Translations under genes and position numbers: made by a program
From: Escherichia phage vB_EcoM-fFiEco06
Sequence record: NC_054914.1
Length of the DNA: 64,000 bases
Strand: one strand, 5' to 3'
Shown: positions 60,717-64,000 of the stretch, piece by piece
How the letters are laid out: each line of letters begins with the position of its first letter
Numbering within the stretch: position 1 is the first letter of the stretch
The notes under the pieces: generated by a model
The model's database searches: none
What the model was told of the DNA's origin: nothing
The model's input: the letters and a program-made list of their open reading frames with translations, nothing else

Positions 60717-61517
60717 ATGGCAGTAGTTGGTGTTCCTGGTTGGATTGGAAGTTCAGCCGCAAATGAAACAGGACAGCGCTGGATGAGTCAAGCGGCTGGT
60801 CAATTAAGATTGGGTGTTCCTTGCTGGATGAGTCAATTTGCAGGTCGCTCACGAGAAATTATTCACACCCTTGGAGCGGACCATAACTTCAATGGTCAAT
60901 GGTTCCGAGATAGATGTTTTGAGGCAGGTAGTGCACCTATAGTGTTTAATATTACCGGAAATTTGGTATCATATTCTAGAGACGTTCCTTTATTCTTCAT
61001 GTATGGAGATACACCTAATGAATATGTTCAGTTGAATATTGGTGGCGGCGTCCATATGTGGGGTAGAGGTGGACAAGGTGGATGGACCCATTCCGGCGGA
61101 GATGGTAATGGTCAACAAGGTGGTCATTGTATTCAAAATGACATCGGTGGACGATTAAGAATTAATAACGGTGGAGTAATTTGTGGTGGAGGTGGAGGTG
61201 GAGGTGGTATCGCTTATCGTCCTCACTCTGGTGCAAATTGGCAAGATATTGGTGGTGGTGGAGGAAGACCATTTGGCCCAGGAGGAGGCGGAGGTTATTC
61301 CGGCGGCGCAGCTTCTTATGATGGCCCAGGAGGTGGTTATAATTATGGTAATGCTCACTCTGGCCAGGGTGGTGATGCTGGCGCAAATGGACAAAATGCC
61401 TGGTATGATGGCGGTAAAGTTCTAAAAGTTGGAGCTGGTGGCGCTGCCGGATATGCTGTTATAGGATCAGCTCCAACATGGCAAAATGTTGGAGTAATAT
61501 ATGGTCCAAGGGTATAA
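60717..61517 (+). CDS. 38: gp38 receptor-binding adhesin (T2/T6 type, glycine-rich motifs), 266 aa
   Basis: Conserved N-terminal domain followed by Gly-rich motifs and variable segments; between 37 and t. Confidence 0.8.
61035..61451 (+). repeat. glycine-rich motif region of gp38 (GGG.., GGGGGGGG, GGGGG, GGGGG runs separated by variable segments)
   Basis: Poly-Gly runs in translation; GGT/GGA/GGC codon runs in DNA. Confidence 0.8.
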
Positions 61518-61548: not shown

Positions 61549-62205
61549 ATGGCAGCACCTAGAATATCATTTTCGCCCTCTGATATTCTATTTGGTGTTC
61601 TAGATCGCTTGTTCAAAGATAACGCTACCGGGAAAGTTCTTGCTTCTCGGGTAGCTGTCGTAATTCTTTTGTTTATGATGGCGATTGTTTGGTATAGGGG
61701 AGATAGTTTCTTTGAGTACTATAAGCAATCAAAGTATGAAACATACAGTGAAATTATTGAAAAGGAAAGAAATGCACGCTTTGAATCTGTCGCCCTGGAA
61801 CAACTCCAGATAGTTCACATATCATCTGAGGCAGACTTTAGTGCGGTGTATTCTTTCCGCCCTAAAAACTTAAACTATTTTGTTGATATTATAGCATATG
61901 AAGGAAAATTACCTTCAACAATAAGTGAAAAATCACTTGGAGGATATCCTGTTGATAAAACTATGGATGAATATACAGTTCATTTAAATGGACGTCATTA
62001 TTATTCCGACTCAAAATTTGCTTTTTTACCAACTAAAAAGCCTACTCCCGAAATAAACTACATGTACAGTTGTCCATATTTTAATTTGGATAATATCTAT
62101 GCTGGAACGATAACCATGTACTGGTATAGAAATGATCATATAAGTAATGACCGCCTTGAATCAATATGTGCTCAGGCGGCCAGAATATTAGGAAGGGCTA
62201 AATAA
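61549..62205 (+). CDS. t: holin T (218 aa)
   Basis: Sequence recognisable as T4 T holin (MAAPRISFSPSDILFGVLDRLFKDN...; single TMD, large periplasmic domain). Confidence 0.93.
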   Translation: MAAPRISFSPSDILFGVLDRLFKDNATGKVLASRVAVVILLFMMAIVWYRGDSFFEYYKQSKYETYSEIIEKERNARFESVALEQLQIVHISSEADFSAVYSFRPKNLNYFVDIIAYEGKLPSTISEKSLGGYPVDKTMDEYTVHLNGRHYYSDSKFAFLPTKKPTPEINYMYSCPYFNLDNIYAGTITMYWYRNDHISNDRLESICAQAARILGRAK

Positions 62206-62478
62206 TTATTTGTTCGTATACATTTCTAGATATCGATATACACCCTCAAAACCCTCGTTGAATTCATCGATGAGGGTTTTCTTATCTTCTTGAGTTAATT
62301 CAGAAACAATTTTACGAAATGAATTCTGATTTAACTTTCTACCTTCATGCGTTACTCCAATCTCATTAAGAAATGCAATAAAATTAGCACGATTCTCAAC
62401 AATATCTTCTCTGGAAAATTTAATCAAAATAGATGCAACAGTAATAATTTCACGAACTGTATCAATGTTTTTATTCAT
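62206..62478 (-). CDS. asiA: anti-sigma70 factor AsiA (90 aa)
   Basis: Sequence recognisable as T4 AsiA (MNKNIDTVREIITVASILIKFSRED...). Confidence 0.93.
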   Translation of the reverse strand: MNKNIDTVREIITVASILIKFSREDIVENRANFIAFLNEIGVTHEGRKLNQNSFRKIVSELTQEDKKTLIDEFNEGFEGVYRYLEMYTNK

Positions 62479-62490
62479 TAACTATACCAC

Positions 62491-62643
62491 TCAATTAGTT
62501 GACTTTGTTATAATATCATCAGACGCTTGATTTGTAAACTGGTCTGTGTTATTTTCTTCAAAAATTTTTTCTACGAATTCCTTGAACGACTCGCGTTCCT
62601 GAGCTACATTATGCTCGATTACCTTTTCAAGATTATGACTCAT
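62491..62643 (-). CDS. candidate small ORF, 50 aa (MSHNLEKVIEHNVAQERESFKEF...), ATGA-coupled to upstream arn-like gene; not in ORF track
   Basis: Hand translation; start overlaps upstream stop. Confidence 0.3.
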   Translation of the reverse strand: MSHNLEKVIEHNVAQERESFKEFVEKIFEENNTDQFTNQASDDIITKSTN

Positions 62644-62918
62644 TCGAAATAATCTTCAATTTCGTAATCATAGACATAAATCATTATAGTTTTTAATACA
62701 TCATCAATACTTTTTCCTGGAGCTGGAATTACGTAAAAATATCCTGCTTTTGAGAGGTCTTTATAAGTTCCAATCAAGAAATCATTATTCTCAAGATGTA
62801 ACTCTTCAACTAATTCATTGACAATTGAATGGTATAGGTTTGGTAGAAACTTATATAGCTTTTCTAGAATATCAATTTTGATTGTGTATTGAACCACGGA
62901 CTGAGAATCAATAATCAT
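62640..62918 (-). CDS. arn: acidic 92-aa protein, probable Arn (anti-restriction, McrBC inhibitor)
   Basis: Size equals T4 Arn, acidic composition, position after asiA. Confidence 0.5.
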   Translation of the reverse strand: MIIDSQSVVQYTIKIDILEKLYKFLPNLYHSIVNELVEELHLENNDFLIGTYKDLSKAGYFYVIPAPGKSIDDVLKTIMIYVYDYEIEDYFE

Positions 62919-62995
62919 AGACCTTCCCCTTATGTTTCTGTTTGCGATTAGATTCTTTAAACGCTTTCTTCTTATCCTTATGGACAGAAGCTTTA

Positions 62996-63220
62996 TTAAA
63001 ATTGTGTTTTGCGACTAAATTGTTCATAGTGCTGAATTACCTCTCTCAAACACTTGCATGTGAATGAAAACTTTTTAGCTACACCACATTCAAATATATG
63101 TTCTCTTAAATCACGTGTGTCAGTATATCCCATCTCAACAATAAAATGTCTTATTAGATTTTTATCTTTATCATTGAGAGAATTAAAATAATCGGATTTT
63201 GAATTAATTTCCCTGGCCAA
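62996..63220 (-). CDS. hypothetical protein, 74 aa
   Basis: ORF in early array. Confidence 0.4.
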   Translation of the reverse strand: MAREINSKSDYFNSLNDKDKNLIRHFIVEMGYTDTRDLREHIFECGVAKKFSFTCKCLREVIQHYEQFSRKTQF

Positions 63221-63500
63221 ATTGAATCACCTTCAGTTGACGTTTTAGTTCTTTTATCATTTCTTCGTTCATCGCAATATAAAGATCGCGTAAAGCAGGT
63301 TTTAACATTCCATTTACTGGAGAACTAAATGGACATACATAATCTTTTCCTACGAGCTTTTTGGTGAATTCCATATCACAGAACTGAAATGCCGGTTCAT
63401 TGGCATAAATTCCCCAATTAGTTGACATCATTTTATTGGCATATTCCAACGCCTGGATTTGATTCTTAATTCCATCAATTTGAAACTTTTTAATATTCAT
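63204..63500 (-). CDS. hypothetical protein, 98 aa
   Basis: ORF in early array. Confidence 0.4.
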   Translation of the reverse strand: MNIKKFQIDGIKNQIQALEYANKMMSTNWGIYANEPAFQFCDMEFTKKLVGKDYVCPFSSPVNGMLKPALRDLYIAMNEEMIKELKRQLKVIQFGQGN

Positions 63501-63961
63501 TAGTAAAGGTCCTCAGAGTAAAGTTCTTTTTCACTACCACCGCGTTCAATACGTACTTGTCCGGCGTAAGTTGCAATAATCATTGCTTCTTCACGTGTCC
63601 AGTAATTGCTATACTGATCAATAAACCCTTGGTCATCATCACAAACTTGCTGAGTAACTAATTGGGGTTTAACTGCATCTAAAACTTCTGCCATATCTTT
63701 AGAATAATGACGAGCACCTGGAATAACAAGAGTTCGTCCATCTTTTAATTTAAAACGGTTGGCGGCACAAACAATTCGTCGTTGATACTTTTGGTTTTCA
63801 TCCCAGTATGCGGTCTGCCAACAGATTTCAGGAACTTCTTTTAGAATATCTTCTTCTGTGCATTTATAACCATGCGCTTTAAATTTTTCAACAAGACTTT
63901 CTGGAGTTTCACGACATAAAGGAACATTCAGCATTTTTAAACGATTAATAAATGGGTTCAT
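63500..63961 (-). CDS. hypothetical protein, 153 aa
   Basis: ORF with start overlap to the downstream gene. Confidence 0.45.
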
Positions 63962-64000
63962 TTAAACCATCCTTTAATACGCTGCCACAAAGTTTTCTGT

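Follow-up and report, generated by a model that had tools for sequence, protein, structure and literature searches.

asiA.1, a small gene between arn and asiA of T4-like phages, belongs to a conserved family and overlaps the predicted asiA promoter

In the DNA of Escherichia phage vB_EcoM-fFiEco06 (sequence record NC_054914.1) we analysed a window of 64,000 nucleotides (nt), by which we mean the whole stretch under study, and within it a short open reading frame (ORF) on the minus strand. The ORF, whose 50-amino-acid (aa) product is MSHNLEKVIEHNVAQERESFKEFVEKIFEENNTDQFTNQASDDIITKSTN, lies between arn, which encodes a DNA-mimic inhibitor of McrBC, and asiA, which encodes the anti-sigma-70 factor. 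It corresponds to the phage T4 gene asiA.1. The N-terminal 26 residues of its product define a protein family spanning most enterobacterial T4-like phages, and it is this part that is worth testing. The genes and their junctions are as follows.

62491..62643, minus strand: asiA.1 coding sequence, 50 codons plus TGA, with the ATG at 62643 and the TGA at 62491-62493
62640..62918, minus strand: arn, the upstream gene, 92 aa (Pfam DM_Arn, E-value 7e-53; annotated in MG781191 and in the T4 RefSeq)
62206..62478, minus strand: asiA, the downstream gene, anti-sigma-70 factor (Pfam AsiA, E-value 1e-42; annotated in MG781191 and in the T4 RefSeq)
62640..62643, minus strand: ATGA, the overlap of the arn stop with the asiA.1 start, the same in 17 of 17 aligned Tequatrovirus sequences
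62479..62490, minus strand: the 12-nt spacer from the asiA.1 stop to the asiA ATG, invariant in the 17 aligned Tequatrovirus sequences

The original prediction had described a 50-codon ORF at this place, joined through ATGA to the stop of the upstream gene. The ORF exists as described, the overlap with the arn TGA is there, and the whole is a genuine small early gene. It had also been called unannotated, which holds only for an ORF track with a 60-aa cutoff: public records annotate it as asiA.1 (T4p256, PHROG 3762).

The 1 kb around the ORF is 100% identical in DNA to Escherichia phage vB_EcoM-fHoEco02 (MG781191), and matches 490 phage records, nearly all at an identity of at least 95%. The source phage is a Tequatrovirus and, over the asiA.1 stretch, is indistinguishable from vB_EcoM-fHoEco02. 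In MG781191 the ORF is listed as coding sequence HE2_258, 'AsiA.1 hypothetical protein', and its counterpart in the T4 RefSeq (NC_000866.4) is gene asiA.1 (T4p256, NP_049867.1), which UniProt names 'Uncharacterized 5.9 kDa protein in asiA-arn intergenic region' (Q9T0T0, Y16A_BPT4). The PHROG 3762 profile matches residues 1-50 of 50 (E-value 7.1e-38). The T4 gene has the same arn-asiA.1-asiA order, strand, ATGA overlap with arn and 12-nt gap to asiA, and its product is identical at 49 of 50 residues (98%), the sole difference being N32 here and Y32 in T4. That the ORF is T4 asiA.1 (Y16A), the same gene, is as good as certain. asiA.1 is thus already catalogued and annotated in most Tequatrovirus genomes; it has been known for decades from T4 annotation and UniProt, its product has been detected by mass spectrometry, and a genome-wide knockdown screen covered it. 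In the literature that we searched we could not find any main-text discussion of asiA.1, and it was mentioned only in supplementary tables.

Shuffling of a 2.5-kb region gave 1.55 +/- 1.19 chance ATG-initiated ORFs of at least 50 aa per shuffle over six frames. A 50-codon ORF of this type is therefore unremarkable in AT-rich DNA, and the case for a gene rests on conservation and not on length. Conservation had been set beforehand as the refuting test for the original prediction, and the ORF is kept both within the genus and beyond it: tblastn found it in 483 phage records, all with a coverage of at least 80% and 481 of them with an identity of at least 90%; for nearly all, the identity reaches 92% or more. 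A metagenomic search for related loci (IMG/VR) yielded only 7 near-identical ones, which are of little use for selection tests.

Selection statistics were obtained from 17 Tequatrovirus sequences aligned across arn, asiA.1 and asiA. The ratio of non-synonymous to synonymous changes (pN/pS) was 0.07 for arn, 0.02 for asiA and 0.41 for asiA.1 as a whole, with 1.03 and 0.57 in the shifted frames of asiA.1. Codons 1-26 of asiA.1 gave 0.19 (pS 0.10), and codons 27-50 gave 2.5 at a pS of only 0.017. Synonymous sites in this C-terminal half are nearly frozen, and the few changes are non-synonymous, at codons 32, 40 and 46.

The search was extended to the other T4-like phages, where asiA is carried by 1167 phage records. 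An ORF starting MSHNL[EQ] stands directly 5' of asiA in at least eight Tevenvirinae genera, namely Tequatrovirus (50 aa), Mosigvirus (53 aa), Dhakavirus (52 aa), Gaprivervirus (54 aa), Tegunavirus (55 aa), Jiaodavirus (88 aa), Moonvirus (90 aa) and Winklervirus (112 aa). The Karamvirus ORF (85 aa) begins MNQTVE and aligns from about residue 10 onwards. This Karamvirus member, in vB_Ent31, starts MNQTVEIQRYLE and so lacks the MSHNLE that is otherwise invariant; the 85-90-aa subtype can thus do without the first five residues. By subtype, tblastn found 483, 164, 88, 201 and 12 records, about 80% of the 1167 that carry asiA. We could not find such an ORF beside asiA in Lazarusvirus (Acinetobacter), Biquartavirus (Aeromonas) or Muldoonvirus.

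We propose to group PHROGs 3762, 5245, 7272 and 24016 as the MSHNLE family. The profiles of PHROGs 3762, 5245 and 7272 show weak reciprocal cross-matches, confined to the N-terminal 17-36 residues. Positional homologues of asiA.1 are PHROG 5245 (Mosig-, Dhaka- and Gaprivervirus, 52-54 aa), PHROG 7272 (Jiaoda-, Moon- and Karamvirus, 85-90 aa) and the ORFs of Winklervirus (112 aa) and Tegunavirus (55 aa). They have in common MSHNL[EQ]-x-[VT]-[VI]-x-x-x-R-x-x-E, to which the short forms add F-x-E-F-[LV]. Unlike the T4-type gene, they have C-terminal parts unrelated in sequence and length, stop before or inside the asiA promoter rather than beyond it, have a Shine-Dalgarno sequence of their own, and are overlapped at their start by the upstream gene over 11 nt, not 4. 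Family ORFs immediately precede the early promoter of asiA, and in the nine ORF-carrying genera examined (Karamvirus included) the gap to asiA is 12-67 nt. An exhaustive HMMER search of 1.84 billion representatives with a Tequatrovirus-only profile returned only the family, one relative of 48% identity and two spurious matches, both to long repetitive proteins.

Across the eight genera the same N-terminal residues are written with different codons: AGT or AGC for S2, CAT or CAC for H3, AAT or AAC for N4, CTT, TTA, CTC or CTA for L5, CGT, AGA or CGA for R13, and GAA or GAG for E16. Over codons 1-25 pN/pS between these genera is 0.45, at a saturated pS of 0.85, as compared with 1.15 and 1.26 in the other frames. 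Judged by these substitution patterns, the N-terminal MSHNLE...R..E module is under protein-level purifying selection across genera. All genera but Winklervirus have the identical first 11 nt, ATGAGTCATAA; in several genera these also contain the final codons and the stop of the gene upstream, and may there be under an added constraint at the DNA level.

The remainder of the ORF coincides with the predicted promoter of asiA. The parts of asiA.1 and the elements embedded in it are as follows.

62566..62643, minus strand: asiA.1 codons 1-26, the conserved N-terminal module, MSHNLE-x-V-I-E...E16...F-K-E-F-V
62491..62565, minus strand: asiA.1 codons 27-50 and stop, an acidic tail that the asiA promoter region encodes, with low model confidence or disorder starting at about residue 31
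62560..62570, minus strand: A6T5 homopolymer, a slippage hot spot, in codons E25-K26-I27-F28, at about -57 to -67 from the inferred asiA start
62510..62538, minus strand: predicted asiA early promoter, TTTACA-17-TATTAT, with a spacer ending in TG
62538..62533, minus strand: promoter -35, TTTACA, in codons F36-T37
62515..62510, minus strand: promoter -10, TATTAT, spanning codons D43-I45

This TTTACA-17-TATTAT element is the best sigma-70-type match in 62000..64000, with 10 of 12 consensus positions and the TG, and would place the start of asiA transcription near 62503, 25 nt before the asiA ATG. A -35 of the GTTTAC type is a hallmark of T4 early promoters, together with a TATAAT-like -10 and A/T-rich upstream DNA. 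An element of the form (G)TTTACA-16/17-TAnnAT is found 27-53 nt 5' of asiA in 9 of the 13 phages examined, from different genera, and a TGTACA variant of the -35 is visible in VR7 and phiR1-RT. A promoter annotated in phage Lutter about 20 nt downstream of the proposed one, whose start would fall at or after the asiA ATG, we regard as a weaker automated call.

The distribution of changes in the C-terminal half follows this element. Its variable sites are codons 39-40 (spacer), codon 46 (discriminator) and codon 32 (about -47), all of them positions at which a promoter tolerates change, which is consistent with this half being conserved as promoter DNA. Relative to the start of the -35, the stop of the family ORF lies at -6 nt in Jiaodavirus, at -4 nt in Moonvirus and Karamvirus, at +13 to +17 nt in Dhaka-, Mosig- and Winklervirus, and at +47 nt in T4-type phages. 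In Mosig- and Dhakavirus the -35 encodes V-Y-N, and in T4-type phages, where it is in a different frame, F-T; at the protein level the C-terminal tails are thus not homologous.

A divergent metagenomic T4-like contig of 3.4 kb from Logan (SRR8048117; here L029), with the order DUF7230-arn-ORF-asiA-holin, allowed a deeper comparison. Its identity to the window is 48% for AsiA.1 over the full length, 51% for Arn and 68% for AsiA. In the N-terminal half of asiA.1 pS reaches 0.85 and conserved residues often have different codons; in the C-terminal half pS is 0.38 and 10 of 11 conserved residues have the identical codon, and these codons map to the -35, to the TG-extended -10 and to the start-site region. 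The contig keeps the complete gene order from arn.4 to asiA, lies apparently outside all genera sampled from GenBank and is a useful outgroup for the cluster. These results indicate that in T4-type phages codons ~33-50 of asiA.1 are constrained as promoter DNA and not as protein, and the C-terminal third of the gene has very probably been shaped by the promoter. Anyone mutating asiA.1 should avoid these codons, as well as the ATGA that it has in common with arn.

The A6T5 run varies in length. In-frame variants, KFFF and KFFFF, occur in P0004, P0007 and phage Lutter, and frameshift variants in phage a15 (+1 A), P0013 and P0014. The record of phage a15 (OQ067373) annotates an ORF on the opposite strand at its frameshifted asiA.1, and the frameshift is either real or a sequencing error. 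The same alternative applies to a 2-nt deletion in phage T2 (PV648363), which changes the -10 hexamer of asiA from TATTAT to TAT--T... and, being near the 3' end, alters the last residues of AsiA.1; lying within the -10, it should weaken the promoter. Phages a15 and T2 are the two lowest-ranked of the 483 tblastn records.

Expression data are available for the T4 orthologue. A proteomic time course of T4 infection was sampled in triplicate at 0, 1, 3, 5, 8, 12, 20 and 30 min at room temperature (PMC9697503). In its label-free quantification (LFQ) table, Y16A_BPT4 (Q9T0T0) is at zero in samples 1-11 of 24 and at 3.3e7 to 2.8e8 in each of samples 12-24 (PMC9697503, supplementary file 5); if the columns are time-ordered, an order that we assumed, T4 AsiA.1 is first seen at 5-8 min. 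AsiA is detected from 1 min and reaches about 1e9 LFQ, so that AsiA.1 comes later than AsiA and with a roughly ten-fold weaker signal, and asiA.1 is classed as 'early-RNA_late-Protein' (PMC9697503). In a CRISPRi-ART screen the knockdown of asiA.1 scored -0.44 (p 0.87, 'Not Fit'; PMC11879866, supplementary file 15), and the same table gives its function as 'Unknown' and its prior essentiality as 'UNKNOWN' (PMC11879866). T4 asiA.1 is translated in infection and is dispensable in the laboratory host.

Upstream of the asiA.1 start we could not find a good Shine-Dalgarno sequence, whereas in other genera the family ORF is preceded by one of the AAGG or GGAG type. Because of this and of the ATGA overlap, translation of asiA.1 is probably coupled to that of arn. 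AsiA.1 would then be made on transcripts initiated upstream of arn, and asiA would be driven by its own promoter within asiA.1, with AsiA made first. Such a dependence of AsiA.1 on transcripts from upstream of arn agrees with a signal that comes later than that of AsiA and is some ten times weaker. A scan with a MotA-box pattern revealed no middle promoter nearby that could feed asiA.1. The sequence TGCTTTA-9 nt-TATATT near 63293 (minus strand), seen by eye, was set aside, its spacing being too short for a middle promoter.

AsiA.1 is a protein of 5.9 kDa with an isoelectric point of 4.6, and has 11 acidic and 5 basic residues. AlphaFold2, run on the family alignment, models it as a single helix of residues 3-40, with a predicted local distance difference test score (pLDDT) of 83-93 for residues 1-30, and of 58 and 48 in the last two ten-residue blocks. 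The hydrophobic moment of the helix is 0.38, as against 0.18 +/- 0.09 for shuffled sequences, 3% of which reach 0.38. One face of the helix carries the conserved L5, V8/I9, E16, F20, F23/V24 and I27. For the 88-aa Jiaodavirus-type member the model is too poor (pLDDT 54) for a fold search.

Searches of Pfam, NCBIfam and PDB sequences gave no match above noise, either for AsiA.1 or for the longer family members. Foldseek found no match to the model in the PDB, as is expected for a single helix. PADLOC gave no match for the window protein and one chance-level match among its relatives (E-value 0.036), and a dedicated anti-defence protein library was not searched. AsiA.1 has no Pfam match to DM_Arn (PF22134), and its single-helix model has no comparable fold. 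Nor does it resemble AsiA: it does not match PF09010, BLASTP gives no alignment up to an E-value of 100, and the hhalign probability is 0.2%.

Taken together, conservation and translation make it very probable that AsiA.1 is a functional protein. That it is a small helical protein-binding accessory factor is a reading that we advance tentatively. The working part would be the amphipathic helix of residues ~3-30, whose conserved face would dock onto a partner protein common to enterobacterial hosts or phages. AsiA.1 may accordingly be pictured as acting early, as an accessory to host takeover or counter-defence that is of use only in certain hosts or conditions; such a role is suggested by C-terminal parts that differ from lineage to lineage and by the confinement of the family to phages of Enterobacterales. 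The original prediction had already named host-takeover or anti-defence factors, as a guess from the neighbourhood; this idea found no Pfam, NCBIfam, PADLOC, PDB sequence or fold match to back it, and the knockdown of T4 asiA.1 caused no fitness defect in the laboratory host (PMC11879866). The identity of asiA.1, its function, the promoter overlap and the helix, taken as one package, we hold to be reasonably probable.

Several observations weigh against this interpretation. Within Tequatrovirus the whole-gene pN/pS of asiA.1, 0.41, is higher than that of arn (0.07) or asiA (0.02), and frameshifted copies occur occasionally (phage a15, P0013, P0014). In the wider family, E10 is not conserved in 3 of the 8 genera, and the Karamvirus member does without the MSHNLE start. 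The activity and the start site of the asiA promoter are predictions from the sequence. The knockdown had no phenotype in the laboratory host (PMC11879866), the triplicate columns of the proteomics table are time-ordered by assumption, and both data sets come from T4 and not from phage vB_EcoM-fFiEco06. The protein has neither homology to proteins of known function nor a fold match, and the proposed binding mechanism derives from its shape, charge and neighbourhood.

One alternative is that the ORF is a by-product: the arn-asiA spacer, which must accommodate the asiA promoter, would be open by chance and translated through a restart at the ATGA by ribosomes that have finished arn, and the peptide would be inert. 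The weak constraint on the gene as a whole (pN/pS 0.41), the DNA-level conservation of its C-terminal half, the low abundance of AsiA.1, the knockdown without fitness effect and the frequency of chance ORFs of this length in AT-rich DNA all agree with it. However, the N-terminal 17-26 residues are kept across 8 genera despite synonymous changes, and the annotated frame alone has a pN/pS below 1. The family also persists in Jiaoda-, Moon- and Karamvirus, whose promoter lies wholly outside the ORF, and in phages in which a Shine-Dalgarno sequence of its own precedes the ORF, and it has members of 85-112 aa with conserved C-terminal domains. We therefore consider an inert by-product unlikely.

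A functional AsiA.1 might also have its partner close at hand. The helix could bind AsiA, sigma-70 region 4 or MotA and so tune the early-to-middle switch, which is a special case of the accessory-factor explanation. In every family-bearing genus the ORF strictly adjoins asiA, in the same cluster as motA, and AsiA.1 accumulates later than AsiA, as would suit a late modulator. But gene order here is conserved for all genes, which makes adjacency to asiA weak evidence, and T4-like phages of Acinetobacter and Aeromonas as well as Muldoonvirus have asiA without the ORF; in Lazarusvirus motA abuts asiA. With no sequence similarity between AsiA.1 and AsiA and no phenotype upon knockdown added to this, such a partnership appears improbable.

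It is conceivable, though we give it little credence, that asiA.1 is a regulatory upstream ORF, whose translation on read-through transcripts controls asiA by termination-reinitiation or by opening of an RNA structure, so that translating it would count and not the peptide made. The asiA.1 stop overlaps the Shine-Dalgarno-like GAGTGG of asiA, which is carried by the stop codon and the 12-nt spacer together; the spacer is invariant in the genus, and the overlapping or abutting chain DUF7230-arn-asiA.1-asiA suggests coupled translation. Yet the gap from stop to AUG varies, from 12 nt in the T4 type and 20 nt in L029 to 46-67 nt elsewhere in the family. Folding of the RNA at the asiA start reveals no significant structure (z-scores +0.7 and +1.0), Rfam gives no match, and what is conserved is the peptide sequence. 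Moreover, the asiA promoter lies 3' of nearly the whole ORF, so that the main early asiA mRNA would not contain asiA.1, which argues against such control.

In T4 internal proteins a 10-residue sequence, MKTYQEFIAE, targets the capsid, and MSHNLEKVIE is superficially like it; the prohead protease cleaves at hydrophobic-x-Glu. The idea that the N-terminus is such a leader for variable cargo, packaged and injected with the DNA, would suit the short conserved N-terminus with its hypervariable remainder, the 'late' protein class and the accumulation up to 30 min, but it was rejected as extremely improbable because the cleavage motif is not conserved (residues 8-10 are VIE or VVE in 5 genera and TVT, TIT or VIQ in the other 3), while the RNA class is early, a late promoter was not found and we are not aware that Y16A has been reported from T4 heads.

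In many GenBank and UniRef entries the product of asiA.1 is called 'anti-sigma factor'. As AsiA.1 shows no similarity to AsiA by BLASTP or profile comparison, this label was carried over from the neighbour; it is an annotation error and should not be propagated. Upstream of arn, at 62908..63027 (minus strand), lies the DUF7230 ORF, a very basic ORF of 39 aa, MNNLVAKHNFNKASVHKDKKKAFKESNRKQKHKGKVYDY (Pfam DUF7230, E-value 1e-11; PHROG 1359), which shares 11 nt with the start of arn. It is unannotated in NC_000866.4 and MG781191, but annotated in RB32-type phages, VR7, G2133 and others. VR7 and phiR1-RT have it immediately next to the MSHNLE ORF, and arn therefore looks inserted between the two in T4-type phages. 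The next gene, arn.1, is at 62996..63220 (minus strand) an ORF of 74 aa with a TTG start, and the T4 RefSeq annotates a 43-aa arn.1; it matches PHROG 4452 (72 aa, 'anti-restriction nuclease') and PHROG 6212 (43 aa), and the label of PHROG 4452 looks as if propagated from arn.

Two further features lie on the other side of asiA.1. At 62248..62280 (plus strand), about 40 nt past the stop of the holin gene t, there is a hairpin with a 14-bp stem followed by a T-rich run; by its sequence it is likely the terminator for t, lying within the 3' coding part of the convergent asiA. At 60717..61517 (plus strand), gp38 is a glycine-rich tail-fibre adhesin of 266 aa of the T2/T6 type and not the T4-type gp38 assembly chaperone. 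The receptor-binding module thus differs from that of T4, despite an asiA region that is ~98% identical.

Returning to the reading that we prefer, a translated accessory factor whose gene doubles as promoter DNA, its components may be compared with known T4 systems. The embedded element is like T4-type early promoters in its (G)TTTACA -35, its 17-nt spacer ending in TG, its TATTAT and its conserved position; it differs in that, in T4-type phages, the asiA element sits wholly within a translated ORF, and its activity is predicted only. As to the protein, T4 has small early proteins that bind one host protein, such as AsiA on sigma-70, Arn on McrBC, Stp and Dmd. AsiA.1 has neither sequence nor fold similarity to these, and no phenotype; it is like them in being small, early, acidic and helical, and in coming from the same early gene cluster.

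The T4 internal proteins offer a comparison of another kind. They too join a short conserved N-terminus to a hypervariable remainder; the differences are that in AsiA.1 the cleavage motif is not conserved and that asiA.1 is transcribed early. An unlikely extension of the accessory-factor reading is that the MSHNLE helix is a common docking module, through which genus-specific C-terminal parts, in proteins of 50 to 112 aa, deliver host-specific activities such as counter-defence. The docking hub would be one conserved in enterobacterial infections, for example the complex of RNA polymerase, sigma-70 and AsiA, or some other target of host takeover. Such an effector would be analogous to the targeting sequence and variable cargo of the T4 internal proteins, but would act within the infected cell.

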